NCBI GenBank assembly: GCA_036172245.1
Contig: JAYWIR010000118.1
Span: forward strand, 62,001 to 109,060
Source of the DNA: Raillietiella orientalis
Taxonomy: Eukaryota
Direction: 5' to 3'
DNA length: 47,060 nt
A program made the translations under genes and the position numbers. Shown in pieces: positions 10,338 through 35,539 of the stretch. Each line of letters opens with the position of its first letter. Within the stretch, counting starts at the first letter, position 1. The notes beneath the pieces were generated by a model that was not told where the DNA came from, searched no databases, and saw only the letters and a program-made list of their open reading frames with translations.

Positions 10338-11410
10338 ACTTCGGCCGCGCCCGAGCACTCCAGGCCCTGGTCGTCGAGCAGACAAGCTGCTCCTGACTGC
10401 CAGACCTGGCGCTCGGCCTTGGCCTTGTACTCCGCAAAGTACCGGACGTCCGGGCATCGGAAGGATTGGCGGGCCTGCAGAAACTCTCTGCTGTTGGCCA
10501 CGCCTTCCCCGAAGCCACGGGAAAGCAGGCGCAAGGGGAACCGGCTGCAGAGCTCGCGGACCGATCTTTTCAGATCGTCCCAGTCCACGAGCTCTCGAAC
10601 GGCAGAGGTCCGGAGATGCTGGCGGAGGTGCTCCGCAGCCACCGGATTTCTCAACCAGTCAGCCGGCAACCTCCAGACGTGCGTCAGAGGGCCCTTGGCA
10701 GGCGGGAGTATCTCAAACTCCAGCCTGTAGTGGTCGGAAAGCTCGGACGGCACGGGACCTCTTCGACCCACCCGACAATGCAGGTGATCGTCGAGGAACA
10801 CATGGTCCGGCAAAGCACGCATTCCGGGATCGGCAGCTAGCAAATTCGAGGCGTGCACCGACGCGCACACCTTGTTCACCAGCCGTTTCTCCCGGCGACG
10901 GTGAGACTCCTTTGGTAGCGCGTGGACGCTGAAGTCCCCGGCTACGAGGTGAGCCACGTCGGGGCCGGAGTTGCTGAGCCAGCGGTCGCGCAGTCTCTCG
11001 AAAAACTCCAGTTTCTCGGTGTGACGCGCGGAGCCGCTCGGCGCGTACACGTTCGTGACGAAAAGGTTGATCGATTCGGACCACTTGAGAACAAGTTGGC
11101 CCACACGACCTTCTTCGTCGAAACAAACGCTCCGCACCGCTGCGGTCACCCTGCCCCGGACAAGGAATGTGACTCCGCAGGTATTCTGGGATCCTGACCC
11201 CCAATGGAGCGTCCCGCCTGCGCGAACTTGCAGATCGGCCGCTTGCTGCTCGGAGAGTGCGTGAATCTCCTGCAGCAGGGCCAGATCGAAGTCGCGCAAG
11301 ACGTTGGCAACCAATCGCCTCTTCTCGTTGTCCTGCAGCCCGTTGACGTTCCAACAGGCCATTCGGACGCGACGGGGAGAAGCGAGACCGCGCATTGCTG
11401 CTACGGACAT
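10338..11410 (-). pseudogene. Element F ORF2 N-terminus: APE (exonuclease III-like) endonuclease, truncated by element E
   Basis: Open frame with APE motifs. GDFN is mutated to GDFS; the paralogous copy Q retains GDFN. Confidence 0.88.
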
Positions 11411-12764
11411 GGAGGTGCGTTCCTCGTACCGTCCGGCGAGGCATCAGCCGGGAGCACGGCGGATGAGGTAGCGCAAGCGCTTCCTGTCCCTGCTGCGCCA
11501 CTCGCGGCCGGCTCGGTGGAGTCGAGGACCATTGCCTCGGGCTCCGAAGAGCATCGGGAACCGTTCCCGGCATGAGGCTCTTGCCTGGCAAGTTTTTGCT
11601 TGCGCGCAGCCCTGGCCTTGACCAAGGCTTGGCGAGCCTTAGCGCTGCCCTCGGACTCCACCTCGGAGTCCGAATTGCGCGCGCGCGGCGGCGGGCGTTT
11701 CGCCTGCCTCTTTGTTTGCTGGCAGCCCGGAGCTGGTCCAGCACTCTTAGAGGGTGCCTTCGTCGCCGATCCCCGTTTCGGGGTCACGGCTTCGGCAGCT
11801 CCCCTCTCGCCGCGGGTGTTTGCGGCGGCGCGCGCGGCGGCAGCAGAGGCTTTTCCTTGCGCCTCTCTGGGCGCGCGGGGTTGCCTCTTCACCCCACCTA
11901 CCTTTGTGATCGGGAAGTGGGAAGGATCGCGCGGTTTGCGCTCCTTCTTTCCCCCGACGAAGGTCCAGGCATCCTCGCCGCCTTCCTGTTTGCCCCGGTT
12001 GGGCGCGAGGGCTTCCAGGGTCCTTCGCATCCCTTTCAAGTCCTCGGATACGGCGATGGAGGCCAGTGTCTCCTTCGCCACGTCTGCCTTCTGCACCTCC
12101 TTACCGGGAGGTGCGGGCACAGTGGCGGGATTCTCGGGTGTCGCGCGAGGCTTTTCAGCCTTTGCTGGCGTTCGGCACGCCGTGGCCGGTTTGCCTGTCG
12201 CGGGCAAAGGACCGCGCGACCCCTTTTTCGACGCTCCGGTGGTCTTCCCGGGCGTGCCACCGCTATTTCGCTCCGGAGAGAGAGCGGACGAAAGCGGCGG
12301 TGGTTTTGCAGCTTGCCCGATGTTATCGGCGGGATGGGACGCTCGGGGCTTCACTGAAGCAGCCTGGAAAAGCTTCTTGTTCTTTCGCGCGGGATTTTGT
12401 GAAGCATTGCTCCGAGAATCGCCCGCGCAAGCGGACTTTTCACTTCTCCGCTGAGAATCCTCTTTCGCGCCTGATTTCTTCCCCGACGACGGGGCGGATG
12501 GAGTCGGCGCTGACGGCGATGTTGCGGGGAGGTTTCTCGCCCTCCTCTTTCGTTTTAGCTCGGCGCACTCGTTAGTCGAGTGGCCGAGCAGCTTACAGTA
12601 TCGGCAACTGCGTGTTGGGCACTTCCGCGGACGGTGGCCCTCCTTCCCGCAGTTGCCGCAAGCGGGGGTTTGCCCGGCAAACCGGAGATAGACGACGACG
12701 TCACCGAGGAGAATCTGCGAAGGCATGAGCCCCCGGTCGTCCATGGTGACGCGCGCCGTCGCAA
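11401..12764 (-). pseudogene. Element F ORF1, 5'-interrupted (two CCHC knuckles followed by a low-complexity basic tail)
   Basis: 447-aa open frame that begins mid-domain (IATARVTMDD...) at the 3' end of element G. Confidence 0.85.
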
Positions 12765-12794
12765 TTCACACCCGGATGTGCCGGGGCATTTATT
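12765..12794 (-). other. 3'-terminal AATAAA + stem-loop (element G)
   Basis: aataaa tgccccgg cacat ccgggtg tgaa. Confidence 0.85.
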
Positions 12795-14881: not shown

Positions 14882-14890
14882 TCGGCTAGA

Positions 14891-14902: not shown

Positions 14903-16219
14903 CCTCGGTGCTCCTCGTGCCGGGAACCGTCCCTAGGTGTAGGCTTCGTGTGTGGTGGTGGTCGATCAGGCAGCAATGCCTGACGCGACTGTGGTGCACC
15001 TGTTGGTGCGTCCCCGCACGTCTCCTTCTCCAGCGAGCCACCGGCAAGACGGGACTGACGTCGTTTCTTGCACTCCGTCGCCGCGTCAACCGATGCGGAC
15101 TTCAGCTACGGAGGGTGGCTGCGCTGTATCGGAAAAACCCAGAATTGCTCACCTGTCGCCCGTTGAACAGTAGTGCCTGGTTGCAGGAAACAGTTCGAAC
15201 GTGGGGACAGTTCGGCATGCAACGCTCCCAACAGGAACGAAGGTTCCTGTTTGGGGGTTACAGAAGTTGCACGCTCTGCGAGATCATGGAGGATCCAAAG
15301 AAGAGAGCGTGGGCAGGAAGAACCCCCCTTGCTGCTGCGCTTTCCTCCCTGATGGAAGATCTAGACAGTGATGTTGCGGCGAAGTGGGTGGTTACAGTAA
15401 CAATCTCCGGAAAGGAGAAGAAGGTAGGAGAGTGTAAGACGGGCCAGTTAACAGACGCTGCGACCCCGAGTACGCCTCCCAATGGACTTCTGCTCTGGGG
15501 CGCGCTGCTCGATGTTCCCATTGAACATCTGAAGTGGCCCCCGGTGCTCATGAACACTTCCGCCCTCCCCTTAAAATGGCAGACGTCGGCTTTCCTGTTG
15601 CAGCACTGGGGACTCCCCTGCAACGCGTGCCGTCACCACTGGACCTGGGGAGCGGTGGACCCCAATTGCGTCAGGTGTGGGGAACGGGATTCCCTCCCCC
15701 TCCTGCTAGTGGATTGTGTTGCCCTTCGGCCCCTTTGGTTTCGCTTTGCCGCGGCCATTTGAAACCCCTGCGGCAACCCCAGGGACGCACTGAAAGCCCT
15801 CTTCGTTGCCGACGCCCTCCGGCCAGCGGCCTCCTTAGCAGCTTTGTGCTGCCTACGCTGGATCGTCACCGCTTGGAGGAAGGCTACGGGAGAACAACGC
15901 AACCAGGGTGCCATCCAGCCATCCTACCAGTTCCTCAGGAGGGCGTCCCGATGGCCCCACCTGGATCCAGGAATACAGAAGGAGCTTGCCGGCATCCTGC
16001 AAAGGAAGCAGCGGCCCCACCAGCAACTGTGATCCACTCCCTTACCCTTCCAACTTTTGTTTTCTTTTTTGTTTTTTTTTTTGTTTTTCCCTCTTCCCCC
16101 TACTGCCGTGGTGGACCGTATCGTTCTGCGAACCGATGACTCGGCAGGCTCTGTGTTGCTTTGAGCGTGGCTGGCGCAATGGTCCAGCCACCGCACGTCT
16201 TTGTAAATGTTTATTTTAC

Positions 16220-16250: not shown

Positions 16251-16416
16251 TTGACGGGGGAGACGAGCTTGCTTGGCTTTGTGGACTTACGTCCACCCTT
16301 CTTGCGCGGTGCCGTGGAAACGGAGTCTGCGCTTCCGGTCTCCACCTCGGGATCGGAAGTGGGGGACTCCTGAGGGGAGGCGGGACGCCTTACGGCCTTG
16401 TTGCCAGCCTTGGAGG
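16251..16416 (-). mobile_element. Element I, left piece: ORF1 C-terminal fragment
   Basis: Reverse complement matches element L ORF1 at ~41248-41412. Continues at 33892 after the inserted element J. Confidence 0.85.
16407..16416. repeat. Target site duplication of element J (gccttggagg), left copy
   Basis: Identical 10-mer at 33892-33901. The homologous uninterrupted ORF1 in element L has it once. Confidence 0.85.
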
Positions 16417-16447
16417 TTTACACCCGTGTACGCCTGGGGCGTTTATT
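16417..16447 (-). other. 3'-terminal AATAAA + stem-loop (element J)
   Basis: aataaa cgccccagg cgtac acgggtg taaa. Confidence 0.75.
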
Positions 16448-19400
16448 GTTAAAACTCTACATCCGCGGTACAAGGCCTTGCTCACGACCATATCCACTGG
16501 ACCTGCCGGGACGCCGCGACGCAGCCCAGCGTAGCGTTCCTCAGCAGCGAAGGGGGATGGGGATAAAACAAAAAGAAAAATAAAAAAATAAACAGACAAA
16601 AAGAAGTTGGAGGGCAGGGAAGGGATCACTAAACGCTTTGAGGAGGTCCCATCCGTTGAAGGATGCGCTCTCGGTCCGTCCGTATATCCGCCAGTTGGGG
16701 CCATCCGGAAGCTCTACGCATAAAGCGTTGGGCGCATGTGGCGACATCCCTCGCGTGTGGACCCACTCCTTCGTTATTGGCGTCGCTCCATGCCGTTACG
16801 ATGCCACGGAAACAGCACAAGGCTGCGATGGCTGCGGCTGGCTGCAGTGCGTCCTTCAGGAAGAATGGCCGAAGAACGTCTCTGGAGGTGCTCCCCGTAG
16901 GGAGCACGAGGTTCGCCCCGAACCGTTCCCAGAGGGGTCGAATGGCAACACTGTCCACAATAATGTGGGAGAGCGATTCCCACTCGCCGCACCTGACACA
17001 CTCAGTATCCACAGTTCCCCTTGTCCAGTGAAAGCGGCGTGCGTTGCAGGGTAAACCCCAGTGGAGCAGTAGAAACGCCGACTCTTGCAACTTAAGGGGT
17101 AGGATCTTGGATTCTTTCAGTACTGGGGGCCACTTCAGCACATCCGTATGGATGACGAGCAGCTCGCCCCATCTCATCAAACCACGCGGCTGGACGCTCG
17201 GGGTCGTGGCGTCCGCCATTCTTCTGTGGTCCAACCGCTAAACATCTTCTCCCTCCATGATATCTGGCAGGTGACTTGCCACATCGGCCTCTGGAGATCC
17301 TGAAGCGCCCTCAGGAGGTAGTGCATCGCCGTAGCAAGGAACGTCTTCAACGCCCACCTGCGACTCCGAAGAAATTCCAGTATTTCCCGCAGGGTGCGGT
17401 TGGCGTATGGGCAGATTCGCAGCCAGTTCATGTTGTTTTCACTGCTCCGGTTCTGCTTAGCCCATGTGCCAGCAAACTCTTCCAGCCAGGCGGAAGATAT
17501 GGCGAGGCCACAAAACATCCAACCGTTGTCTTCGCCAGGGTTGCTATGCATCCGAGCATAAGGACGCATCTTCGGATCTTCCGGCCAGGGCACAGAAGAA
17601 ACGATGCGAGTCCTTCGCATCGGGACACACGCCTGGCGAGGAGGCGGGCCGGAACGCACCAAGGGGTGCTCCACATCTTCGCTGCGATGGCGAGGGTTCG
17701 CCACCGCAGCTGGATTTCCACGCGCTCCAGCGTCAGGAGGCCAAGGCCGCCGTCCCTACGCGGAACGCACAAGTCCTTCAGAGGGACTCGGGGCCTTCCC
17801 TTGCCACAAAGGGCTATGCGGAGGAGGTCCTTTGTCTTCTTTTTGCATTCTCTGGGGGCGGGGCAAACAAAAAGCAAGTAGCGGAGGATGAAGGCCGCAA
17901 AAGCGTTCCAAACCGCGGCCCGTTCCGGCAAGTGAAACTTGCCTTCCAGGAACGGGCCGATCGCCGTCTCAACTTTTTGAAGACAGCTGGACCACGCTTT
18001 CGCAGGGGAGTAGTCACCCAACCGCACACCAAGGTACTTCAGGCACCTCGTCGTGGGGTTCCCTAGACGGACCCAGTCCTGATGCCCTACCAACGCCGCA
18101 CCAACTGCCACCACCGACGACTACGCCCTGTTGACCTGCAGTCCTTTGATACGGCTGAGCAGATCAAAGAAGTCTCCGACCGCCTTCTCCGGGGTGGACA
18201 TAGGTAAAAGGAGCAGAAGATCGTCGGCGTACGCTGCTACGGCGGGCGTGGCGGGGCACGAGCTCGGCTAGGGTGCCAAGGTAAACCTGTACGCTCTCAG
18301 CACCAACTCAATGTAGGTGCTGAAGAGCAGGGGACTAAGGTTGTCGCCCTGCCGTATGCCCCGCCGTAACAGCACGATGTACGCCTCCTGACTGATAGAA
18401 AAGATGGAGATCATCGCATTCCATTAGCAAGAGCGCAGGTAGGTAATCAAGGAGGATGGGAAGCCCATGCGACCCAGGAGCTCCAACAAAAGCACCTGGT
18501 CAACACAGTCGAACGCCTTATGGAGATCGACTGCGAGCGCTAAGGCCCCCTTCCCTGCCCAAGTGTCCATTCCCTACCCTGCTTGCGGCCCCAAATTGGG
18601 GTTGCCGATTTTTCCTCTCCCTTCCTTTTGACACCTCTGCGCGTGTATCCATGTCCTCGCGAAGAAGAGGTTGGCATCCATGCTTCGCCCGGGAACAGCA
18701 TAAGTCTGCTCCGGGCTAATTATGGATTCTGCCACCTGCCCCGGACGCGAAGCCCATAGCCCCGCAACCAACTTGGCGTCCGTATTCACAATCGTGATCG
18801 GACGCCAGTTGTTCAAATTCCTAAGGTCTCCCCCTTTCGGAAGGAGCCTCACTCTGGCTGAACGAAACGAGGCGGGAACATCGCCTTCGCCTCGGATCAG
18901 CCTTGTCAGCTGAAGCAGCAGGGGTGCCAGCTCTTCCGCAAAGCTCTGAGAGAACTCCGCGGGCAAGCCGTCTTACCTTGGAGCTTTCCGCCTCTTGAGC
19001 CTTTTGATACCGGCGAGAATTTCGCCGGTGGTAAAAGGCTCATCGAGGCTTAACGACTCCTCCTCCCCTATTCTCGCGACACCGTCCGGAAGCAAGAGCC
19101 AAGAAACATCTTGATCCGGGGGCGCCCTGGCGTAAAGGAAGCAATAATAACTCCGCACGAGATACCGTACCGACGCCGGGGACGAACATTCCCGGCACTG
19201 GTCGTTCAGAAAGCTGGCCGACCCGGATTGCCAGACTTGGCGTTCGGCCCCGGCGCGGTACTCGGCCAGGCGACGGGCATTAGGAGTTCGCTCGTAGCTA
19301 CGGGCCTGTAAATAGGCCCGATGGTTGCGAGGACCCTAGCCGAATCCGGAGGGCAGGCGGTCCAGGGGGAACTGCTCGCAGAACTCCCGGACCGATTCCT

Positions 19401-19751
19401 TAAAAAGGTCCCAGTCCTAAAGAATCGAGAGCGTGACGTCTCTCAGGTATTCGCGAAGGTGTTCCTTTGCACCTGAGAGTCGCAACCAGTCCGCGGGTAG
19501 ACGCCAGTCCCTGAATGGCAGTCCTTTGTCGCGATGCCGCATCTGGAAATTTAACCGGGAATGGTCCGACAACGTTGATGCAACCCTCCCTTGTTTGCCG
19601 ACACGTTAACACAGTTCAGCGTCGAGGAACACGTGGTCGATGCTGCGGACCATTCCCTTTTCACCCGCGACCAAGTTTTGCGCACGCATGGCGGCGCACA
19701 ACTCGTTCATAGCGTTCACTTGTGTTTCCGGCTCACCTGTTTGCAGGCGGA

Positions 19752-19760
19752 GATTGAAAT
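19752..19760. repeat. 9-bp TSD gattgaaat, copy 1 of 3
   Basis: Also at 25667-25675 and 31579-31587. Its reverse complement lies in the GDFN codons of element J's endonuclease. Confidence 0.9.
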
Positions 19761-19790
19761 TCATCACCCGGTCTAGCCGGGGAGTTTATT
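19761..19790 (-). other. 3'-terminal AATAAA + stem-loop (element K1)
   Basis: aataaa ctccccgg ctaga ccgggtg atga, then the TSD. Confidence 0.85.
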
Positions 19791-20072
19791 AATAATAATA
19801 AGCTGGTCAGGGACAATGCCCCAACCAACAGAACGACAGAGAACACAGAAAATCTACCGGCACGCAGTCCTGTTAAACAAACCGCTCGCAGCGTGGGGGG
19901 AATGAGGGGAAACAAACAAAAATCAAAAACTGGGGGGAAGGGAAAAGGGTTTTTGGTTAGGCTCCGTACTCACGGGGACTTATACGATGAGCACCTGAAA
20001 TGTTCCGGAGCCTATATGGAGGCGGGTGTAAAAACAAAATACAAATTTAGTTTATGGAGGGTAGGGCAATGA

Positions 20073-23000
20073 TCACCGGGTTGGCCGCTGATGAGGGTGT
20101 GTAAACCGGCGGTGTATTGCGGCGAGATTCCTTTTTGTCTCCTCTGTCAAATGAGGCCATCTAGCGGATGCTCCCATGTAGAAGGATGCTTTGCTGATTA
20201 CCTCTTGGTACTATTCGTTAATTACCAACGCCTGGCGGACAAAAGCTATCGCGCGTATGCAACCGATGGTTGTAATCCTTGCGCTTAGTGACAGCCCGCT
20301 CGGCGTGAAGAATCGTCGCAGAAAGTCTCTTGCGGTGTCCACGGGATGCAATAGTGCTGTTGCCAGCCTACGCCACAGTCCTTGTAGGACACCGCAGTCC
20401 AGAAGTAGGTGCGGAATCGACTCCGTCGATCCGCACCGAACGCAGTTCGCAGACGCAAGTCCCCCGGAGTCACGATGCCAACGCTCGTTGCACTGAAAAC
20501 CCCAGTGAACGAAAAGCAGCACAACTTGTTTCCAAGGAAGAGGGAGCAGCGAACTGTCAATACACTGTGGAGGGACTACAAGTTCTTCGGAATTGACAGC
20601 AAGTTCTTCTGCCCACCATAGGAGTCCCTTTGCAGTAAAACGAGGAGTGGCGGCGTCCGCCAACTCACTCGTCTTCCAGGCGCCAAGGATTTTGGTTTTT
20701 CCCGCTATCGTGCAAAAAACCTCCCACCTCGCCGGTTGGTAACTGTCGTTTCTTGCCCTAAGGGCAGACAGCGCTGCGGCAAGAGGCATGGCAGCCAGGG
20801 TAGAAAACTTCACCTCGTCCTGCAGTACTTCTTCCAAGGATCGTGAAAAAAATTGACGCAGGGGCCGAAGATCCTCAGGGCGTATTCCTTGGATCGCCGA
20901 CCAGGATTCAACAGACTCCTGCCGCCAAGCTTCAAAGTTTATTGGGCGGCAGGAGATCCACGAGTGAGCATCCAGAAGTGCGGTCAACTGCCGCAAAGGA
21001 GACCCGAAACCCCGCTTCCTGTATTGAGTGCTCGGCAAAAGCGAGAGAAATCCCTAGCTGCCGGCGCATCTCCGCAGGAGAATGCGGGATGGCACACACA
21101 GGGGGGATGTCCATAGCTGGGCACACAGTGCCAGCAGTCGGAACTGCACCTGCAGTCCCATTCGCTCCATTGTCAAGATAAACAAACCAGCATTCCGACG
21201 CGGAGCTCACAAATCTTTAAGGCGGATTCTGGATCTCGCCGGACCCCAGAAAGCGTTCCTGAGCAGTCGTTTAGCCCGCTGTTTTGCCGCATAGGGGGGG
21301 TCAAAAACCAAAAACGGAGGACGGAGGAGGGGGGCCACAAAGGTGTTCCAAATAGTCGCCCGTTCCTGCAAGGTAAACTTGCCGTTAAAGAACTGGCTGA
21401 TGGCCAACTCTGCTTTCTGAAGACAGTCCGCTCACGCTTCGGCTGCGCCGAAAGCGCCCAACGGAACGCCAAGGTAATTAAAGTACCCGCCCGTGGGGAT
21501 CCCCAGGCGGATCCAGTCGGACTGCCCCTCCCACGACGTACCCACAGGAACGACCACGCTATTCTCTCTGTTCACGCTCACGCCCGCTCCCCGACGAATC
21601 AGGTCAAAGAAATCCTCGACACTGGACGCCGGGGTGGACATGGGAAGAATAAAAAGCAGGTCATCAGCGTAGGCGGCCACGGCAGGCGTTCCCGGGCAGG
21701 AGCTTGGCAACTGAGACAGCGTCAGCCTGTATGCTCTTAGCAGCAACTCAAAGAAGATGCTGAAGAGCAAGGGGCTTAAGCTGTCGCCCTGTCGGATGCC
21801 CTTACGAACGGGAATACCATACACGCGGCAGCCGCTGAAAGTAATGCACGTTAGCGCGTGGCGCCAGCACGCGCGCAAATACAGCAGGAGTTGCGCCGGG
21901 AACCCAAGGCGTTCCAGAAGCTCCAAAAGCAGCTTCTGGTATACGCAGTCGAACGCCTTGTGGAGATCGACCGCGACCGCCAAGGCACCTGGCGTTCCCT
22001 CCTGCCGTCGGCGCCTGTTCTTCTTGCCTGCGGCAGTGACTTTCGCAGCAGCCTGGCTTTGCTGCGCCACAACTTCCTGCAGCTGCATCCATGTACGCGC
22101 GAAAAGGATGTTCGCCTTCATGGATCGTCCCGGAACCGCGTAGGTTGGTTCCGGGCTCACCACAGATTCCGCGATACTTTCTAACCGCGCGACCCACAGC
22201 TTGGAAAACAACTTGACGTCCGAGTTCACCAAGGTGATCGGACACCAGTTGTTAAGTTGACGCAAGTCCCCGCCTTTCGGCAGGAGACGCCCCTTCGCTG
22301 AGCGGAAGGAATCCGGGACATTCCCGGATTCACTCATCAGCGTCGCGAGTTTCAGAATCAAGGGAATGAGGTCCACTTCAAAGCACTGATAAAACCCTGC
22401 AGGAAGCCCATCATCGCCTGGCGCCTTTCGTCTCTTCAGCCCAGCGTTGGCGTACGAAAATTCATCCGCCGTGAAAAGCTCGTTGAGACGTTCGCGTTCC
22501 TCCTCGCCGACAACACGAGCATCCTGAGACAGGAGTATCTCAGAAAGAATATCCTCCGTCAGGGATTCCGCGTACAGCGAGGAGTAGTAGCGTCTAACGA
22601 TGCGGTGTACTTCGGCTGGGGCCGAACATTCCTGGCCCTTGTCGTCCAACAAGCATGCTGCTCCGGACTGCCAGACCTGGCGCTCGGCCCTCGCCTTGTA
22701 CTCCGCAAGACGCTTGACATCCGCGTGTCTCGAAAACGTGCGGGCCTGCAGAAAGTCTCTACTGTTGGCCACGCCCTCTCCGAAACCGCGTGGAAGCCGG
22801 TGCAAGTGGAATTATCAACAGAATTCGCGGACAGATCTTTTGAGATCGTCCCAGTCCGCAAGTTCTTGAATGGCAAAGCCCCGGAGGTATCCACGTAGAT
22901 GCTCCGCAGCCTCCGGTTGGCTCAGCCAATCCGCCTCCATCCTCCAGCTTTGCAACGGAGGCCCCCTGCCTGGCGGAAGGATCTGAAACTCCAACCTGTG

Positions 23001-23666
23001 GTGGTCAGACAGCTCAGTCAACAATCTTTCTCTCCTGCCCACACGCGAATGCAGGTTTTCATCGAGGAAAACGTGATCGAGCGATCTTTCCATTCCAGGT
23101 TCGCTGACCATCAAGTTGGCGGCGGAAACGGACGCGCACATCTCGATGGGCAGCGCGCGCTCCCTCGGGCGGCTCCAATCGTCGGAGAGCAGGCGGACGT
23201 TGAAGTCCCCAGCGACGAGGTGCGCCACTTGGAAGCCGGAGTTGTTGAGCCACTGGCTCTGCACCTCACCAAAGAAAGCTACTCTTTCTTCGAGGTAGCG
23301 AGAGCCACTCGGCGCGTAGACGTTCGTAACGACGAGATCGATGGACTCGGACCACTTGATGACAAGCTGGCCTATCCGTCCATCGTCATCGAAACGAACA
23401 CTACGCACCGCTTCCGCCGTTTTTCCTCTTACGAGGAACGCGACGCCGCACGTGTGTGCGCCGTCGCACCGCCAATGTAGCGTTCCGCCTGCGCGCTCCT
23501 CGATTTCGGCTGCCTGCTCGTCGGAGATTACGTGAATCTCCTGCAGGAGCGCGAGGTCGAAGGGGCGCAGTGCGTTGGCTACTAATCGCCTCTTCTCGTC
23601 GTTCTGTAGTCCGTTCACGTTCCAACACGTTACGGACAGACGACGAGAAGACGCGATTCCCCGCAT
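20073..23666 (-). pseudogene. K1 ORF2 (APE endonuclease, reverse transcriptase, CCHC finger; ~1190 codons) with premature stops
   Basis: ORF pieces 22815-23666 (EN), 21432-22805 (RT with AAYADD), 21207-21407 and 20211-21038 (CVRCGSTESIPHLLLDC). Confidence 0.92.
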
Positions 23667-25492: not shown

Positions 25493-25648
25493 TGGCGAGA
25501 AAGACTAAGTGGAGGCGGCCGTCGGTTCCGCGATTGGAGATCCGGATGCTGTTCCTCCAACTTCGGTAGCTTCAAGTTGGGTCGACATCGTCGTCAAAGT
25601 GTACGACGCCAAGATGAAGCGGATGAAAGCACGGAGACGAGAGCGAAG

Positions 25649-25666
25649 AAAAACACGTCCGCACTC
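25649..25666 (-). promoter_or_regulatory. 5'-terminal motif GAGTGCGGACGTGTTTTT (element K1)
   Basis: Begins immediately after the TSD. Confidence 0.6.
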
Positions 25667-25675: not shown

Positions 25676-25705
25676 TTATCACCCGGTCACGCCGGGGCGT
25701 TTATT
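25676..25705 (-). other. 3'-terminal AATAAA + stem-loop (element K2)
   Basis: aataaa cgccccgg cgtga ccgggtg ataa, then the TSD. Confidence 0.88.
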
Positions 25706-25988
25706 AATAATAATAAACTGGTCAGGGACAATGTCCTTAACCAACAGAACGACAGAGAACATAGAAAAATTACCGGCACGCAGGCCTGGTAAACAAACCG
25801 CTCGCAGCGTGGGAGGAATGAGGGGAAACAAACAAAAATCAAAAACTGGAGGGAAGGGTAACGGGTTTTCGGTTAGGCTCCGTACTCACGGGGATTTAAA
25901 CGATGAGCACCTAAAATGTTCCGGAGCCTATGGGGACGCGGGTGTAAAAAGAAAATACAAAAATAGTTTATGGAGGGTAGGGCAATGA

Positions 25989-28900
25989 TCACCGGGTTGG
26001 CCGCTGCTGAGCGTGTGTAAACCGGCGGTGTATTGCGGCGGGAATCCTCTTTGTCTCCTCTGTCAAATGAGGCCATCTAGATGATGATCCCATGTAGAAG
26101 GATGCTTTGCTGATTACCTCTTGGTGCTGTCCGTTGATTACCAACGCCTGGCGGACGGAAACTATCGCGCGTATGCAACCGATGGTTGCAATCCTTGCGC
26201 ATAGTGAAAGCCCGCTCGGCGTGAAGAATCGTCGCAGCAAGTCTCTTGCGGTGTCCACGGGATGCAATAGTGCTGTTGCCAGCCTACGCCACAGTCCTTG
26301 TAGGACACCGCAGTCCAGAAGTAGGTGCGGAATCGACTCCGTCGATCCGCACCGAACGCAGTTCGCAGACGCAAGTCCCCCGGAGTCACGATGCCAACGC
26401 TCGTTGCACTGAAAACCCTAGTGAACGAAAATCAGCACGTCTTGTTTCCAAGCAAGGGGGAGCAGCGAACTGTCCATACACTGTGGAGGGACTACAAGTT
26501 CTTCGGGGGTGACAGCAAGTTCTTCTGCCCACCGGAGGAGTCCCTTTGCAGTAACACGAGGAGTGGCGGCGTCCGCCAACTCACTTGTCTTCCAGGTGCC
26601 AAGGAGTTTGGTTTTTCCCGCTATCGTGCAGGAAACCTCCCACCTCGCCGGTTGGTAACTGTGGTTTCTTGCCCTGAGGGAGACAGCGCTGCGGAAAGAG
26701 GCGTGGCAGCCAGGGTAGAAAACTTCACCTCGTCCTGCAGTACTTCTTCCAAGGATCGTGGAAAAAATTGGCGCAGGGGGCGAAGATCTTCAGGGCGTAT
26801 TCCTTGGAACGCCGCCCAGGATTCAACAGACTCCTGCCGCCAAGCTTCAAAGTTCATTGGGCGGCAGGAGATCCACGAGTGTGCTTCCAGAAGTGCGGTC
26901 AACTGCCGCAATGGAAACCCGAAACCCCGCTTTCTGTATTGAGTGCCCGGCAGAAGCGAGAGAAATCCTCCGCTGCCGGCGCATCTCCGCAGGAGAATGC
27001 GAGCTGGCACACACAGGGGGGATGTCCATAGCTGGGCACACAGTGCCAGCAGTCGGAACTGCACCTGCAGTCCGATTCGCTCCATTGTCAGGATACCCAA
27101 ACCAGCATCCCGACGCGGAGCTGACAAATCTTTAAGGCGGATCCTGGATCTCGCCGGACCCCAGAGAGCGTTCCTGAGCAGGCGCTTAGCCCGCTGTTTT
27201 GCCGCATAGGGGGGGTCCAAAACAAAAAACAGGGGACGGAGGAGGGGGCCACAAAGGTGTTCCAAATAGTCGCCCGTTCCTGCAAGGTAAACTTGCCATT
27301 AAAGAACGGGCTGATGGCCAACTCTGCTTTCTGAAGACAGTCCGCCCACGCTTCGGCTGCGCCGAAAGCGCCCAACGGAACGTCAAGGTACTTAAAGTAC
27401 CCGCCCGTGGGGATCCCCAGGCGGATCCAGTCGGACTGCCCCTCCCACGACGTACCCACAGGAACGACCACGCTCTTCTCTCTGTTCACGCTCACGCCCG
27501 CTCCCCGAAGAATCAGGTCGAAAAAATCCTCGACACTGGACGCCGGGGTGGACATGGGGAGCAGAAGAAGCAGGTCATCATCGTAGGCGGCCACGGCAGG
27601 CGTTCCCGGGCAGGAGCTTGGCAAGTGAGACAGCGTCAGCCGAATGCTCTTAGCATCAACTCAAAGAAGATGCTGAAGAGCAACGGGCTTAAGCTGTCGC
27701 CCTGTCGGATGCCCCTACGAACGGGAATACCATACACGCGGCAGCCGCTAAAAGTGATGCAGGTTAGCGCGTGGCGCCAGCACGCGCGCAAATACAGCAG
27801 GAGTTGCGCCGGGAACCCAAGGCGTTCCATAAGCTCCAAAAGCAGCTTCGGGTTTACGCAGTCGAACGCCTTGTGGAGATCGACCGCGACCGCCAAGGCA
27901 CCTGGCGTTCCCTCCTGCCGTCGGCGCCTGTTCTTTTTGCCTGCGGCAGTGACTTTCGCAGCAGCTTGGCTTTGCTGCGCCACAACTTCCTGCAGCTGCA
28001 TCCATGTACGCGCGAAAAGGATGTTCGCCTCCATGGATCGTCCCGGACCCGCGTAGGTTTGTTCCGGGCTCACCACAGATTCCGCTATTCTTCCTAACCG
28101 CGCGACCCACAGCTTGGAAAACAACTTGACGTCCGAGTTCACCAAGGTGATCGGACGCCAGTTGTTAAGTTGGCGCAAGTCTCCGCCTTTCGGCAGGAGA
28201 CGCACCTTCGCTGAGCGGAAGGAATCAGGGACATTCCCGGATTCACTCATCAGCGTCGCGAGTTTAAGCATCAAGGGAATGAGCTCCACTGCAAAGCACT
28301 GATAAAACTCTGCAGGGAGCATATCCTCGCCTGGCGCCTTTCGTCTCTTCAGCCCAGCGATGGCGGACGAAAATTCATCCGCCGTGAAGGGCTCGTCGAG
28401 ACGTTCGCGTTCCTCCTCGCCGACAACACGAGCATCCTGAGACAGGAGTATCTCAGAAAGAATATCCTCCGTCGGGGATTCCGCGTAGAGCGAGGAGTAG
28501 TAGCGTCTCACAATGCGGCGTACTTCGGCTGGGGCCGAACATTCCTGGCCCTTGTCGTCCAACAGGCATGCTGCTCCGGACTGCCAGACCTGGCGCTCGG
28601 CCCTCGCCTTGTACTCTGAGAGACGCCCGACATCCGCGCGTCTCGAAAACGTGCGGGCCTGCAGAAAGTCTCTACTGTTGGCCACGCCCTCTCCGAAACC
28701 GCGTGGAAGCCGGTGCAAGGGGAATTGGCAACAGAACTCGTGGACAGATCTTTTGAGATCGTCCCAGTCCGCAAGTTCTTGAATGGCAAAGCCCCGGAGG
28801 TATCCACGTAGATGCTCCGCAGCCTCCGGTTGGCTAAGCCAATCCGCCTGCATCCTCCTGCTTTGCAACGGAGGCCCCTGCCTGGCGGAAGGATCTCAAA

Positions 28901-29578
28901 CTCCAACCTGTGGTGGTCAGAAAGCTCAGTCAACAATCTTCCTCTCCTACCCACACGCGAATGCAGGTTTTCATCGAGGAAAACGTGATCGAGCGATCTT
29001 TCCATTCCAGGTTCGCTGACCATCAAGTTGGCGGCGTGAACGGACGCGTACATCTCGATGGGCAGCGCGCGCTCCCTCGGGCGGCTCCAATCGTCGGAGA
29101 GCAGGCGGACGTTGAAGTCCCCAGCGACGAGGTGCGCCACTTGGAAGCCGGAGTTGTTGAGCCACTGGCTCTGCACCTTACCAAAGAAAGCTACTCTTTC
29201 TTCGAGGTAGCGAGAGCCACTCGGCGCGTAGACGTTCGTAACGACGAGATCGATGGACTCGGACCACTTGATGACAAGCTGGCCTATCCGTCCGTTGTCA
29301 TCGAAACGAACACTACGCACCGCTTCCGCCATTTTTCCTCTTACGAGGAACGCGACGCCGCACGTGTGTGCGCCGCCGCACCGCCAATGTAGCCTTCCGC
29401 CTGCGCGCTCCTCGATTTCGGCTGCCTGCTTGTCGGAGATCACGTGAATCTCCTGCAGCAGCGCGAGGTCGAAGGGGCGCAGGGCGTTGGCTACTAATCG
29501 CCTCTTCTCGTCGTTCTGCAGTCCGTTCACGTTCCAACACGTTACGGACAGACGACGAGAAGACGCGATTCCCCGCAT
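25989..29578 (-). pseudogene. K2 ORF2 (EN-RT-CCHC) with frameshifts and YADD>YDDD
   Basis: ORF pieces 28508-29578, 27636-28868, 27088-27624, 26621-27265 and 25989-26267. Confidence 0.92.
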
Positions 29579-31500
29579 TACTGCTGGGAAGGTGGCGGCT
29601 TTTTGCTCGCTTTATCCGGCGAGCAGACGGCGAGCAGCACGACTGGATGGAGGGGACGGTCGCCACCGTCCTCTGTCGTGCTGCATGCATGTAATGCCTC
29701 CACGCCAGGCTGAACCGCGTCGGGTTTCGTGGAGACTTCGCGTTGCTTCGCGGCGAGCGTTGCCTGGCTGCCTACTTTTGATCGGCGCGCACACGCTTTC
29801 GAACGAGTTGTCCTCGTCTCGGCGATCGGAACGGCATCCATTTCGGAGTCCGACCGGCGCATGTTCGATCGGGTTTCGGCCTTCCGCGAAGCAGTGACAG
29901 GTTCTGCTGGATTGACAGCTGTCCTGTTTTCGTTTTCCGTCACCAGAGCATCGCTTTTGGTGACGGCTGCTTTCCCGGCGCGCGCGTTTTCAGCGTTCTC
30001 ACGCGCAGTTGCACGAGGGACCTTTGCTGAAGTCTTCTTTACTTCATTACGGTTCCTCACTCCACGTGGCGCCGTAAATGGAGATTGTGCTCCATGGCCA
30101 TCTTTGAAGCCATCCGCGTCTTTGGACGGGAGCACTTTCGATGGCTCCGACACGCTCGTCATGGACGCTGCTTTCGGAAGGGCTTTTAATCCCTTCGTTG
30201 GCATGGCATCCGCGCCAGTCCAGAGCTTGCTCTCCGACTGCGACAGTGTGAGATTTCTCTCTGCTTTCGCGGTGTTGGATCGCGACGCGGATTTTTTTTT
30301 GCCGACTTTCGAAGTCGACACGGCGCAACCCTTCTTACCCGATTTGGGCTTCTCAGCCACTGCAGGAGGTGAAGGAATGGATCTGACGGTACTGGAAGTG
30401 TCCTTACCGCCGTTGTCCATTGGCGTCCCCGCCGGTTGCTCGAACTCCGAGAGAGCCGGGCGTGCTTGGGAAGGACACCTATTGCGCCTAGGGGGACTTA
30501 CCATTGCCCCGGATTCCCAGCACCCTTTCTTTTGCGGCTCCCCTGCCGCGAGAGGGGGTGCGCAGGGCTTCGCGTGCGAGGTTTCCTGCTGCTTTGGGGC
30601 GACATTCCGCCTCGCGTTTTTACCGAATTTCTGCCGTGGGGTCTCCAGGTTTTTCGCAGATTTTTTCTTTTTATCCGCGCTTTGTTTTCCAGGATGGAGC
30701 TCCGCGGCTGCCTTTTTTCGCATGAGATCCGGGCAATTTTTCAATTGGTGCCCGGATAGTTTGCAATAACGGCATTTTCCAGAGGGGCATTTATCCAAAC
30801 AATGCCCCTCCTTCCCGCATTGCTCGCACGTTTTTACTTTGCCCACGAACCACAGGTGAACGACCGTGTCTTTCACCTGTAGTTTCGTGGGCAGCAGACG
30901 GCGGTCCGGCATTGTAAGCCGGACTCCAGCGACTCCGCTGTGTATGGACGGGAAGTCCTTGAGGTTGCTACGCACCCTCCACAGCGCATGGACCGTGGCG
31001 AATTTTGCCAACGCGTTCCGAATATCAGTTTCGGAGATTTCCGACTCGATGTCGAAAATCTCCACCACAAATGAGTCGTCCATGGCGGCCGGGAAGACCT
31101 TCTGGCCACGGATCGACAGCGGGGTGCGCAGCAAGCGTTGCACAAGTGCAGCGTCTTTGCAACGCACCTTGAAATAGCCCATGTCTTTTACGGGCATAAT
31201 GGCGAGAAGGTCCTCCTCCCGCACGCCAACACGGGTCAGTTCATCGTTGAACTGATTCCCGTCGCGCGCAGAAAGAAAACCACTCACCTTATATCGGAGA
31301 GCAGGTCTATAGCCTTGGGCTACGTATGCCCGCAACTCCGACTCGTCGAGTGGTTTCCCTTTGACGGCTGCTGTGGCAGCAACGTCAGCAAAACTCCTCT
31401 CCATTGGCGAGAAAGACGAGGTGGAGGCGGCCGTCGGTTCCGCGATTGTAGATCCAGATGCTGTTCCTCCAACTTCAGTAGCTTCAAGTTGGGTCGACAT
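29578..31500 (-). CDS. K2 ORF1 protein, intact 640 aa (MSTQLEATEV...PPPSQQ), gag-like with two CCHC knuckles
   Basis: Uninterrupted frame from the ATG at 31500 to the TAA overlapping the ORF2 ATG. Confidence 0.88.
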   Translation of the reverse strand: MSTQLEATEVGGTASGSTIAEPTAASTSSFSPMERSFADVAATAAVKGKPLDESELRAYVAQGYRPALRYKVSGFLSARDGNQFNDELTRVGVREEDLLAIMPVKDMGYFKVRCKDAALVQRLLRTPLSIRGQKVFPAAMDDSFVVEIFDIESEISETDIRNALAKFATVHALWRVRSNLKDFPSIHSGVAGVRLTMPDRRLLPTKLQVKDTVVHLWFVGKVKTCEQCGKEGHCLDKCPSGKCRYCKLSGHQLKNCPDLMRKKAAAELHPGKQSADKKKKSAKNLETPRQKFGKNARRNVAPKQQETSHAKPCAPPLAAGEPQKKGCWESGAMVSPPRRNRCPSQARPALSEFEQPAGTPMDNGGKDTSSTVRSIPSPPAVAEKPKSGKKGCAVSTSKVGKKKSASRSNTAKAERNLTLSQSESKLWTGADAMPTKGLKALPKAASMTSVSEPSKVLPSKDADGFKDGHGAQSPFTAPRGVRNRNEVKKTSAKVPRATARENAENARAGKAAVTKSDALVTENENRTAVNPAEPVTASRKAETRSNMRRSDSEMDAVPIAETRTTRSKACARRSKVGSQATLAAKQREVSTKPDAVQPGVEALHACSTTEDGGDRPLHPVVLLAVCSPDKASKKPPPSQQ

Positions 31501-31560
31501 CGTCGTCAAAATGTACAACGCCAAGATGAAGCGGATGAAAGCACGGAGACGAGAGCGAAG

Positions 31561-31578
31561 AAAAACACGTCCGCACTC
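31561..31578 (-). promoter_or_regulatory. 5'-terminal motif GAGTGCGGACGTGTTTTT (element K2)
   Basis: Begins immediately after the TSD. Confidence 0.6.
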
Positions 31579-31587
31579 GATTGAAAT
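31579..31587. repeat. 9-bp TSD gattgaaat, copy 3 of 3
   Basis: Abuts the K2 5' end and continues into host EN (AHLIAGDFN on the minus strand). Confidence 0.9.
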
Positions 31588-32046
31588 CTCCCGCTATCAG
31601 GTGAGCCTTCCGCACGTTCGTGTCCGCCAGCCAGTCGCGCTTCAGGGAATCCAGCAGCCTCGTACGGTCGCTGTATCCCTGTTTACCGCTGGGGGCGTAC
31701 ACATTCGTGACGATCAATTCGATCGAGTCGGACCAGCTGAGAATCAGCTGACCGACCCGAGCGTCGTCATCGAAGCGCACGCCCTTCACGGCCGCGTCGA
31801 TGGCCGGCTTCACGAAGAACGCGACCCCGCAGGTGTTGCGGAGGCCGCACCCCCAATACAGCCGACCCCCCGCGATCGTCTCGATCTCCTGGGCGTCTGC
31901 CGCGGTGATCACGTGGATCTTCTGCAGCAGGGCCAGGTCGAGCTCACGCAGGGTGTCGGCCGTATCTCGCCTGTTACCGTCGTCGCGCAGCCCGTTGACG
32001 TTCCAACAGGCGGCGCGAATCCGACGGCGACTGGCGAGCCCAGGTG

Positions 32047-33798
32047 TAATTCCTGGGAAGATGGCGATGTGGCGTCCACCACCTGTTGGGGCGGGACGCT
32101 AGGTGGAGGAGGAGGGTCAGGCGCTGCGTGCACCTGGTCCCCCTCCTCCATCGGTGCCGGCGCGTCGGCCGGATCACCCGCAGGTGGAGTCGCGCCTACC
32201 TGTTCGCCCTTCTCCATGGAGGCGGGCTGTTCAGGGTCGGCGCCTGCAGGGGGGACTTCATCCCCCTGTTCACCCTCCTCCATGGCTATGGCCGGATCGA
32301 CGGCTTGCGAGCGTAAGAATTCCTCCTGCGAATTTCCCACGCTGGCGACGGCTTCCGTCTTCTCCTTCTCGCTGGTGGAGGGGAGGCGCCTCCTGGGCTT
32401 CTGGGACTTGCGTCCCGACTTCCTGGGGGGTGCCTCCGAGGAGGAGGATCTGCTTCCGGCCTCCAGGTCTAACTCACCTGTGGAGGCCATCTTCGCCGTA
32501 GCCGGCCTTCGCACGGCGTTGCGCGAGGGATTCTCACGCTCTGCCAGCGTGACCGCGTGCTCCTCCGCCGCCTGCGCGAACGCGGCGTCCGCGGCTTCGA
32601 CCGCCGCTATGTCGCGCGGCTCACCCTCTGTGTTTACAGAGGGTTTGCCGTCGCGAGCCTCCGGCGCAGCGGAAACGGCAAGGGGAGGATCGACACTCCG
32701 TGTGGCAAACTCGGGAACGACGATTTGTTCTAGTGCCACCGTGTTCTCGCGCAGAGTTTTCGAGCGCGGACCGGGTTTTTTTTGGCTAACCGGCCGTCTT
32801 GCGCTGTTTGCTCTCCGCGGGTGGGAGTTTTCTCGGCTTTCTAGCTTCTACAAGGTGCCATCCCTCTTCGCCTTCCACCGTTTCAGAAGGTTTATCCTCC
32901 GGCTTACACGCCGGCGGTTGAGGTGTTGGCAGCTTGTGCTGGCCCTTTTGCACTTTAGTTTTAGAGACCTTTGAAGAGCGTTTCCCCTGCGCTTTCTTCG
33001 CGGTAGGGGGAACCGGGGTGGGGCGTTTCTGTCACACGCTCCGAACGGAGCCCCGCTCCCCGCGCAAATGGCATTGTATATTGGGACACCTTTTACGTAG
33101 GTGTCCCGCGGTATCACAATGCCAGCAATACCGGGGCTTCCCTACATACCACAAGTCGACGTTTTCTTGTGCCACCTTTAGTTTGTGGAGAAGACCAGAA
33201 TTCTCCCGTACGGTGACCCGCGCTGCAGCCTGCCCACCAAAAAGGCTATGGAAGCCGTCGAAAATGGAAGGTTTCGGCCACAGTGCGTGCACCTCACCGT
33301 ACTTTCTTAATTCCTCACCAACCGCTGATAGCGTCATTAGGCTGGTGATGCCAGTCATGTGGACCACCACGGAGCGGTCCATGGATACTGGCAGGATCTT
33401 GCGGCCGTCTACGTTCAGCGGCGCATGGATTAGGCGGTGAGCCAAGGTGACATCTTTGGAGACCACCTCGACCCGCTGCCCGCCGCTGAGGACGGAGAGG
33501 CCGTTTAGATCCTTCTCAGTATCATTCGCGTCCTTCAATGCTTTGCTGAAGGCGCGCGCTGAACGGCCGTCGAAGAAGTTGCCTACCTGGTAGACAAGCG
33601 ATAACTTGTACCCTTAGGCCTTGTATGCGGCCATCTCCGCCATGGCTTCTGCGCTGGGCGCGGCCACCATGGCGCTCCATGTCCTCGGCGTGGCCGGGGA
33701 TGTTTCCGAGGCGGCTGCTTCTGCTCCAGTAGGCTGTGGGGGAGAACTAGCCTCCCCCAATCCCACCTTTATCGCGGTGTTCTCTGACGTCGTGACCA
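32047..33798 (-). pseudogene. Element J ORF1, disrupted
   Basis: ORF pieces 33614-33835, 33032-33538 (WYVGKPRYCWHCDTAGHLRKRC) and 31909-32739 (MEEG repeats). Homologous to element C ORF1. Start approximate. Confidence 0.8.
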
Positions 33799-33871
33799 TT
33801 GGACACCAACGATGTACCCAAAACACCACACACAAGAAAGCGCTTTCCTACTACTCTTCGGAGAGTGGAGG

Positions 33872-33886
33872 AAAAACACGTTCTCC
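33872..33886 (-). promoter_or_regulatory. 5'-terminal motif variant GGAGAACGTGTTTTT (element J)
   Basis: 5 nt inside the right TSD. Confidence 0.5.
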
Positions 33887-33891
33887 AGCTG

Positions 33892-33901
33892 GCCTTGGAG
33901 G
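33892..33901. repeat. Target site duplication of element J (gccttggagg), right copy
   Basis: Matches 16407-16416. Confidence 0.85.
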
Positions 33902-34160
33902 GTTCTGGCTGCAACGAGGCTGCCAGCTCCTCCGCGGCTCGCGCAAAGGCTACGTCATCAACGGTGCTGTCGAGGACGGACGCCGCCGCCGGCTCGCTCC
34001 CCTCGCTGTTGACAGAGTCAACAGAGGGGTTGTCGTCGGTAGCGGCGAGTTCTTTTTCGCAGCGTTGGGGAATACGTTCTACAACGACGGTGCACTGACG
34101 TGTTCTGTGTTGCTTTTCGAGCGTGATTCCTCTCCGTCTTCTTGTGTGCGGTGTGCCCCA
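33892..34160 (-). mobile_element. Element I, right piece: ORF1 fragment (right boundary approximate)
   Basis: Reverse complement matches element L ORF1 at ~41050-41258 (DDVAFARAAEELAASLQPEPSKA). Confidence 0.8.
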
Positions 34161-34164
34161 GTGC

Positions 34165-35539
34165 TTCCACTGGGATGTCCACGGAGCCCCTGCAGCAAAA
34201 GATGGATGTGGAGGCTGCTACTGGCAGTGGAGACTATACTCCAGATGCGCGCATCTCGGGATAACCAGCAAGCGCGCCGGAATAAACTGCGAAAGCAAGA
34301 GCCTGTTGCCGGAGGCGGTTCCGGCTCCTGCACGGAGACCGAGGCGATGATCCTTGGCTCCCAGGACTCAGCTGGGTGCGATGTGGCGGCGAACGGGAGC
34401 GATTCCGCTTCCCAATCCGCTCTCTTATCAGATGACTTCTCGCAGAAGGGGCGAGTAGCGCGCCGCCATGTTTGCAGCAGTAATGCGTGGACTCGAGTCC
34501 TCTCGTCGCATCGACGTGGCCTGTTGGAAAGTCAACGGGCTGCGTGATGCAGACAAAAGTCGGACTGTAGCCAATGCTTTGCGCGCGCTAGTTCTGGTGC
34601 TGCAGCAGGAGATACATAGCATCTCCGAACGGCAGGCATTGGATCTGCAAGAGTGCGCGGGCGGGACGCCACACTGGCGGCGAGACTCCGCGCACACGTG
34701 CGGAGTCGCGTTCCTCGTCCGAAGCAGGGTGGCAGAGGCGGTGGGGAAGGTTTGTTTCGACGAGGAAGGTCGTGTGGGCCATCTTGTCGTCTAGTGGTCA
34801 GAATCGATCGACCTTGTGGTTACGAACATCTACGCGCCGAGTAGCGGCCGGCATTACAACCAGCGATTTGCATTCCTGGGTGGCCTGCGCAGCCGCTGGC
34901 TCGCTGTCTCGGGCCCTAACGTGGCGCACCTCCTTGCAGGAGACTTCAACCTCCACCTGCTAACAGAGGAGAGATGCCGCTTGAGGGAGAAGCAACTGGT
35001 GAGCCAGGTATGCGCGTCCGTTCGCGTGCAAAACTTGCTTGCTGGTGAGTTCGGGATGGAGAGCTCGCCGGACCATGCGTTCCTCGATGAGCACCTGCTC
35101 TCACGAGTAGGTCGGAGAGGGCGCCCGCTGTCCGCGATTTGGGATCATCGGTGACTGGAGTTCGAGCTCCTCCCGCCTGGAAAAGTGCCTCCGATGGATG
35201 TCTGGAGGTTGGCGGCCGACTGGCTTAGCAATTCGGAGGCGGTGGAGCATCTTTGGCAACACCTCCGGGGCTTCGCCATCCGTGAACTCGAGAACTGGGA
35301 CGATCTGAAAAGATCGGTCCGCGAGTTCTCCTGACGGTTCCCCTTCACCTGCTTCCCCGCGGCTTCGTCGAAAGTGTCGCGAACAGCAGATCCTATCTGC
35401 AGGCGCGTACCTTCTCCCGATGCACGGACGTCTGGCGTCTGGCGGAGTACAAGGCCAGGGCCGAACGCCAGGTTTGGCAGTCTGGAACGGCTTGTCTTCT
35501 CGATGACGCTGGCCAGAAATGCTCGGCTGCAGCCGGAAT
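34165..35539 (+). mobile_element. Element M: internal LINE segment (ORF1 tail, degenerate endonuclease, linker); left boundary approximate
   Basis: TAATG at 34481-34485; ACWKVNGL, QEIH, NIYAP, GDFN and DHAF. Ends at CSAAAGI next to the 3' end of element N. Confidence 0.88.

Follow-up and report, generated by a model that had tools for sequence, protein, structure and literature searches.

How a stretch of DNA comes to hold the same insertion junction in two different hosts is the question raised by a 47,060-nt segment of the Raillietiella orientalis genome (GenBank assembly GCA_036172245.1, contig JAYWIR010000118.1, forward strand, positions 62,001 to 109,060; this whole segment is called the window below). 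Two closely similar long interspersed nuclear elements (LINEs), E and N, are joined by their 3′ ends to what appears to be the same position of two far more diverged LINE hosts, F and M. One subfamily may have chosen this position twice, one junction may have been copied, or two insertions may have coincided. The best explanation, and in our judgement a probable one, is that E and N stem from two separate retrotranspositions of a young subfamily at a site preferred by a self-targeting LINE family. The occurrence of sister LINEs at one site suggests that a young family aims at fixed sites in its relatives and builds arrays consisting of LINEs only.

The whole window, at 55-64% G+C, consists of pieces of one L1-like LINE family with an apurinic/apyrimidinic endonuclease (APE) and a reverse transcriptase (RT). 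About 20 pieces fill it in several nesting layers, with two clean 9-bp target duplications (Table 1). Fragments were placed by blastn, tblastn and self-comparison on the full-length copy H1, whose 5924-nt span served as the coordinate reference and holds open reading frame (ORF) 1 at 172-2010, the endonuclease at 1977-2861, the RT at 2865-4244 and a C-terminal part at 4623-5465. Pfam matches above the cut-off were obtained for the endonuclease (PF03372, Exo_endo_phos) in H1 (6.1e-13) and F (6.3e-14), and the RT domain (PF00078, RVT_1) was found downstream of the endonuclease in H1 (2e-16) and in the E region (1.5e-11).

According to the sequence-only reading, both inserts sit antisense in the endonuclease-RT linker of their hosts, at the same base of the same codon. 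The letters are where that reading placed them: the reverse complement of 10338-10357 is tgctcgggcgcggccgaagt and runs on into antisense E (ttgccatacgg...), while 35520-35539 reads tgctcggctgcagccggaat and runs on into antisense N (ttgtcacccgg...). Orientation and location also held, both joints falling at reference ~3068, between the Pfam endonuclease and RT matches. We aligned F and M with the five uninterrupted copies that span the site (H1, H2, S1, K and G). The last host base of F and that of M fall in one column of this seven-sequence alignment, which in the intact copies is the T of ...GCCGAAGT directly before ACACC. The identity of the nucleotide, however, can be proved only to ~3 nt, because one to three bases at the joint (T/TT, AAT/AGT) could belong to either partner. 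If insertion were uniform, one same-orientation pair within 3 nt among the six 3′ junctions of the window would be expected with a probability of 0.0086.

Beside the joint, F and M differ at ~8 of 29 host bases, which indicates that no flank was carried along with the insert. The possibility that a master copy had transduced host flank at its 3′ end was likewise rejected, since the flanks differ from their first bases on. A DNA hairpin just 5′ of the nick was considered as a recognition feature and discarded: the folds predicted for H1 and H2 have a stem of 6 bp there and that for K one of 5 bp, whereas those predicted for the occupied hosts F and M are different.

E is a decayed copy. It has lost ~150 nt internally, including the YADD region, contains an insertion of 23 nt and is interrupted by one in-frame stop. 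Its 3′ terminus is ...AATAAATGCCCCGGCATATCCGTATGGCAA and that of N ...ATTAAATGCCCCGGCATATCCGGGTGACAA. The two elements differ at 118 of 1722 columns (~93% identity overall) and at 75 of 1461 nt in the coding part (~95%), where the differences are neutral (pS 0.050, pN 0.047, dN/dS ~1). A first pairwise alignment had hinted at a common 5′ end; E in fact reaches ~460 nt further 5′ than N and, apart from the deletion and insertion, continues colinear with other LINEs upstream of the point where N ends. The 5′ ends thus differ (reference ~3534 in E, ~4140 in N), as do the 5′ flanks, which are unrelated to each other (S4 and X).

The hosts are far less alike. F and M share 0.73 identity over 1093 columns, compared with 95% for the coding parts of E and N, which bears out the claimed contrast between close inserts and diverged hosts. 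Similarity between the hosts near the junction as high as that between the inserts would have pointed to recombination or duplication, and no rise towards the junction was found. In the 300 columns nearest to it F-M identity is 0.77, the same level as that of F with H1, H2 and K (0.77-0.78), and in three successive blocks it is 0.72, 0.70 and 0.77, so that M is not a mosaic. The contrast is strong over the whole elements but modest at the joint itself, where identity steps from 0.84 in the last 100 nt of E and N to 0.77 in the first 100 nt of F and M. This step is small because the last ~300 nt of E and N are more diverged than the rest, with 12, 12 and 22 differences per 100 columns. Divergence between the inserts rises from ~5% to ~16% near the ORF2 stop (10082; 10083-10337 against 35540-35800), with a very variable patch at ~10215-10270, even though the differences within the coding part have a neutral pattern.

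The pattern of host divergence bears on the order of events. Between F and M we obtained a dS of 0.645 and a dN of 0.256 (dN/dS 0.40), and the 77, 81 and 132 differences at the first, second and third codon positions show a third-position excess. The F-M ratio resembles those of other between-subfamily pairs (0.23-0.30) and departs from those of the young pairs F-T and E-N. This signature of purifying selection implies that the hosts descend from separate active lineages that diverged while still coding. Divergence of this kind is impossible once an insert has split ORF2. The endonuclease-linker frame of F is open, with 0 stops, and that of M contains four in-frame stops. The anatomy of the locus, the gap in divergence between hosts and inserts and the signatures of selection were observed directly. 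Together with the differing 5′ ends and flanks, the host signature makes a DNA-level duplication of one composite unlikely. The earlier claim that this is not a duplicated junction is thereby supported, with a synonymous divergence of 0.645 between hosts against 0.050 between inserts, and the view that E and N represent two independent retrotransposition events is well supported by the sequence comparisons.

Such a duplication is nevertheless the core of one alternative, in which a single old insertion was copied as DNA in an inverted segmental duplication, followed by gene conversion that either homogenised E and N or replaced one host up to the junction. The loci are indeed copies in inverted orientation, separated by 25 kb of a repeat array, a setting where unequal exchange and conversion are common, and a single BLAST alignment (8622-11607 against 37259-34272, 84%) extends over the junction. 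E-N identity is uneven, with 95% over the coding sequence and 84% over the final ~250 nt, and if an uninterrupted donor had supplied a conversion tract, that tract would be expected to end at the junction. The jump in E-N divergence could itself have arisen if the template was switched from one master RNA to another, or if a conversion tract covered the coding part. Yet the synonymous divergence of the hosts is ~13 times that of the inserts and carries the mark of purifying selection, M shows no mosaic structure and lies at the same distance from F as any other subfamily pair, and conversion would have had to be complete over more than 1.2 kb although the sequences are only 73% identical. The scenario also leaves it to be explained why E and N differ in their 5′ ends and in the flanks beyond them. 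We consider it improbable.

Evidence from outside the window came from a public DNA run, X1, which shares 19% of sampled words with the stretch. Contigs of this run were mapped onto positions 5000-13000 at a likeness of at least 85%; most were 85-95% like the stretch, and 13 of 228 reached at least 99%. One 284-nt contig spans 10285-10568 from end to end with 42 mismatches and no gap, covering 54 nt on the E side and 230 nt on the F side of the joint. Over the same interval the N-M junction differs from the E-F junction by 54 mismatches and 2 gap columns. Judged from these mismatch counts rather than from its letters, the contig probably represents a third junction of the E-F kind. None of the six loose contig ends listed, of 164, lay at 10338, and the run gave no usable picture of how E-type flanks are distributed. 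Scans with short pieces of the shared E/N 3′ end yielded chance matches: a 17-nt piece hit at least 120 metagenome loci, none of them further similar to the window, and a 20-nt piece gave one match of 21 nt only in a bacterial metagenome-assembled genome and none in viral contigs.

The bridging contig also bears on the possibility that similar repeat reads were misjoined during assembly at one or both junctions. A window made entirely of repeats invites such errors. However, neither side of the joint has the same sequence at the two junctions, the element ends are consistent, and a contig of an independent run crosses a junction of the E-F type with 54 nt and 230 nt on either side, which leaves an assembly artefact with very little credibility.

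For the claim that the subfamily inserts at a specific position, the record is mixed. Both E/N copies in the window and the one 284-nt public contig agree with it, whereas another sister pair, B and B′, uses two sites. On the strength of two copies and one bridging contig we regard true site specificity of the E/N subfamily as plausible.

We then compared the other junctions in the window. Two antisense 3′ junctions, of S4 into S3 (5523-5528) and of K into Q (41790-41793), lie 26 nt apart on the reference (2173-2199), near the start of the host endonuclease, with ambiguous overlaps at the joints of 4 nt (ATTG) and 2 nt (AT), respectively. The 3′ end of B (922-925) is joined antisense to S1 in the RT KAFD codons. 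Q and Q2 are full-length elements of the Q type, and their 5′ ends abut antisense hosts, P and S7; these 5′ junctions (Q-P at ~39875-39890, Q2-S7 at 14884/14885) share one alignment column ~20 nt upstream of the B-S1 site. The P-Q and S7-Q2 composites are ~72% identical on both sides, and could be an old duplicated composite. The 10 junctions that were given a reference position include 6 same-orientation pairs no more than 30 nt apart, against 0.23 expected under uniform insertion (P ~1.5e-5). A conservative set of six 3′ junctions, with one member per possibly duplicated group, retains 2 pairs (P = 0.002). Eight of the 10 junctions are antisense (one-sided binomial 0.055).

This clustering is the natural place to weigh coincidence. 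Two independent insertions might have met at one position without dedicated recognition, since short primer sites ending in RAT are limited in a LINE array of 58% G+C and would occasionally be reused. Most 3′ junctions do have a host ending in AAT, GAT or AGT, with 1-4 nt of ambiguous ownership; B and B′ lie at different sites, and no longer motif is common to the sites. Against this, the 5924-nt reference offers 429 AAT, GAT or AGT sites on its two strands, which gives a chance of ~1/430 for a given pair and ~0.007 for the three sister pairs with visible flanks, two of which (E/N and H1/H2) share a site, and the junctions are clustered overall. We judge coincidence to be unlikely, although less so than a copied junction.

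Two separate retrotranspositions at a preferred site can be framed in a conventional mechanism. The anatomy fits target-primed reverse transcription: 3′ ends are complete, 5′ ends are variable, and the insertions are accompanied by 9-bp duplications or a small deletion. In this scheme the first step would be a nick made by an E/N ribonucleoprotein in the endonuclease-RT linker of an older LINE copy unrelated to it, on the sense strand and after ...GCCG(A/G)A(G/A)T, and the freed 3′-OH would prime reverse transcription on the 3′ end of the element (...CCGGGUGACAA). The outcome would be an antisense, 5′-truncated copy, the event that placed E having cost ~90 bp of its host. The shared site would then reflect a target preference, set by the specificity of nicking, by a few A/T pairs that the RNA forms at its 3′ end with the nicked strand, or by both, and the same preference, repeated over many events, would build the nested LINE-only array of the window. 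At most joints the putative primer strand of the host ends in AAT, GAT or AGT, and the bases that follow complement the terminal ...AA of the element, which points to such A/T pairing. Pairing alone fails to explain the exact reuse of a site, because 429 such trinucleotides are present on the two strands of the reference; additional recognition by the endonuclease or the ribonucleoprotein presumably contributes. No longer motif common to the insertion sites was found among the window junctions compared. From this body of evidence we infer the nicking step, the determinant of the site and the preference as a property of the subfamily.

Several observations weigh against repeated insertion at a preferred site. 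The window holds only two E/N copies and no full-length master of this subfamily, and five of the seven copies that span the site are unoccupied. The alignment revealed no site motif that is common to F and M and absent from the five unoccupied copies. The sisters B and B′ (920-2184 and 14990-16254, 92.4% identical) were inserted in the RT KAFD codons of S1 and in ORF1 of M, respectively, showing that the choice of site in this LINE family is not absolute. The clustered junctions may not all be independent events, given that H1/H2 may be a tandem duplication and that Q-P and Q2-S7 may be one old composite. The host of N is absent beyond the 5′ end of N, so that this insertion cannot be wholly reconstructed. 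Finally, the jump in E-N divergence from ~5% to ~16% is not explained by simple neutral decay from one master and leaves room for recombination or conversion.

A second case of site sharing is provided by H1 and H2. The word ATTTCAATC follows L, H2 and H1, its plus-strand form GATTGAAAT occurring at 31579, 25667 and 19752 and nowhere else in the window. In intact copies, the codons to which the end of L and the start of G align are neighbours (GDFN) in the endonuclease. This adjacency and the shared 9-bp word indicate that one host, L plus G, took up two sisters at a single 9-bp target in sense orientation. Either two insertions at one target or a tandem duplication could have produced this arrangement. 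Tandem dimers formed by double insertion in R1 arrays retain a copy of the target-site duplication in the tandem junction (McGurk and Barbash 2018, PMC5932611, in the part drawn on here), and H2 and H1 resemble them, lying head to tail with such a copy between them. The comparison fits H1/H2 and not E/N, which occupy two different host copies; for H1/H2, a tandem duplication by exchange between the 9-bp repeats may account for the arrangement instead. The 17.5-kb block G-H1-H2-L is itself flanked by GCCTTGGAG, which identifies it as one full-length LINE inserted antisense in ORF1 of M, with 16253-16415 as the displaced piece of M.

The locus can be set beside two groups of known elements. Clusters of Zepp and ZeppL elements have been described, in the passages available to us, as nested and self-targeting (PMC3446292, PMC8226300). 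Those of Zepp (Coccomyxa/Chlorella) and ZeppL (Chlamydomonas) are, like the window, G+C-rich arrays of nested LINEs, tens of kilobases long, with self-insertion and frequent 5′ truncation. In the Chlamydomonas ZeppL arrays unequal exchange and conversion are common, according to the section consulted of PMC9977147. Unlike Zepp, the elements of the window lack a tail repeat, and their 3′ ends carry a conserved hairpin instead, while Zepp and L1-1_CR carry (A)n tails (PMC3747384, its Table 3 being the part used); the likeness to Zepp rests on the architecture of the array. To account for clustering, the same passages on Zepp clusters invoke a mechanism that 'targets existing copies', or hotspots, and give no site (PMC3446292, PMC8226300); nor do they speak of base-precise, orientation-specific sites inside a coding region.

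The second group comprises sequence-specific APE LINEs such as R1, which inserts in 28S ribosomal DNA, and the Tx1 group of the L1 clade, each directed to one defined multicopy target in the excerpts consulted of PMC3747384 and PMC1919474. As in R1 and Tx1, copies of an APE LINE would recur here at one defined sequence in a multicopy target. Unlike R1 and Tx1, the family would insert antisense into coding sequence of related LINEs and not into an RNA gene, a microsatellite or a DNA transposon; moreover, specificity is derived here from 2-3 copies only, and B and B′ use two sites. The array may combine features of these known kinds, Zepp-like nested arrays and sequence-specific APE LINEs. In those parts of the literature that our search covered, the original Zepp papers and supplements not among them, we found no account of a LINE that enters the ORF2 of another LINE antisense at a base-precise site.

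In a wider reading, which we offer tentatively and consider somewhat doubtful, the LINE family would target and parasitise its own kind. The subfamilies would nick a few conserved coding motifs of related LINEs and insert mostly antisense, each insertion disabling a rival ORF2 and landing in a safe place, and arrays would grow by sequence recognition instead of chromatin targeting. The motifs in question would be the endonuclease-RT linker (E/N), the GDFN codons (H1/H2), the RT KAFD region and a spot early in the endonuclease, and the resulting LINE-only arrays would possibly be centromere-like. How Zepp-type clusters come to consist almost wholly of their own copies is left unresolved in the passages cited above (PMC3446292, PMC8226300). 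Nicking by a subfamily of a defined sequence in related LINEs would, if true, supply a simple molecular explanation of clustering, and would provide an example of one transposon lineage disabling the reading frames of its competitors. Should a weak hotspot underlie the recurrence, the locus would be no more than a common nested repeat array.

The affinities of the family itself were examined by domain and protein searches. Among named proteins, L1-clade RTs of plants and vertebrates come closest (~25-31% identity), and a single metagenome protein without a name matches at 59%; no named Zepp protein was among the matches of these searches, and a protein atlas search returned generic reverse transcriptase clusters only. 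The family appears to belong to the L1 clade. Weaker similarities were seen to zf-RVT at the C-terminus (24.9, 26.2 and 18.9 bits, all under the cut-off of 27.5) and to the zinc knuckle zf-CCHC in ORF1 of F (15.6 bits, under the cut-off of 20.8).

All eight 3′ ends found by motif scan conform to AATAAAYGCCCCGGC-nnnn-CCGGGTGAnAA, with no poly(A) and no tail repeat; the degenerate 3′ ends of B and G were additionally spotted by eye. This terminal motif consists of an invariant inverted repeat of 5-6 bp (CCCCGG..CCGGG) and a short tail, and forms a conserved 3′ hairpin. The stem is invariant among copies, and covariation therefore cannot support the hairpin. 'Stringent' L1 lineages recognise a conserved 3′ stem-loop and not poly(A), in the portions consulted of PMC3747384 and PMC3472496. 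The family resembles these lineages in its conserved 3′-terminal inverted repeat and lack of poly(A), and by this analogy its hairpin may be recognised by the RT. At the other end, full-length copies start with G(A/C)GTGCGGACGTGTTTTT or a variant thereof.

Table 1. Positions of the LINE copies, junctions and duplications discussed, numbered along the window.
Feature	Position	Strand	Description	Basis
E	8161..10337	+	dead LINE copy, 5′-truncated, reference ~3534 to 3′ end	tblastn against H1, alignment, translation
N	35540..37262	-	sister of E, 5′-truncated at reference ~4140, with four in-frame stops	tblastn against H1, alignment, translation
Junction A1	10335..10341		3′ end of E joined to antisense F; host reads ...GCCGAAGT up to the joint	
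Junction A2	35536..35542		3′ end of N joined to antisense M; host reads ...GCCGGAAT up to the joint	
F	10338..12762	-	5′ part of E's host: ORF1, endonuclease, linker to reference 3068	Pfam, tblastn
S4	5528..8160	-	3′ part of E's host (putative), reference ~3160 to 3′ end	tblastn, alignment
M	33892..35539	+	N's host: ORF1 part, endonuclease, linker to reference 3068	tblastn
X	37263..37484	-	222 nt adjoining the 5′ end of N; starts GAGTAGGCAGG, as full-length 5′ ends do	
T	46374..47059	+	5′-truncated sister of F, 96.8% identical	
H1	19761..25666	-	full-length LINE: ORF1, endonuclease, RT, putative C-terminal zinc-binding region	
H2	25676..31578	-	full-length LINE, head-to-tail tandem with H1, 95.7% identical	
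Target-site duplication ATTTCAATC	19752..19760, 25667-25675, 31579-31587	-	three copies	
G	16416..19751	-	3′ half of H1/H2 host, GDFN codons of endonuclease to 3′ end	
L	31588..33891	-	5′ half of H1/H2 host, 5′ end to GDFN codons	
Outer 9-bp duplication GCCTTGGAG	16407-16415, 33892-33900		flanks the L..G block inside ORF1 of M	
Family 3′ ends	near 923, 5528, 10337, 12763, 16252, 16416, 19761, 25676, 35540, 41793			

The remaining pieces complete the picture of the hosts. F and S4 are co-oriented and have complementary reference coordinates, and are for that reason taken as one element; on this reckoning they would form a single full-length host around E, with ~90 bp missing at the insert. X does not continue M: it resembles the start of a LINE 5′ untranslated region (UTR) and lies head to tail behind the 3′ end of element P. 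T leaves the window ~540 nt before the E/N site, and its differences from F are neutral (dN/dS ~1.2).

Head-to-tail joins without a visible target duplication were seen from S7 to F (12762/12763), from P to X (37484/37485) and from X to N (37262/37263): the 3′ end of S7 directly abuts the 5′ end of F, and X runs straight into the 5′-truncated N. The 3′ UTR of P (37485-38140) is unusually long and rich in purine runs.

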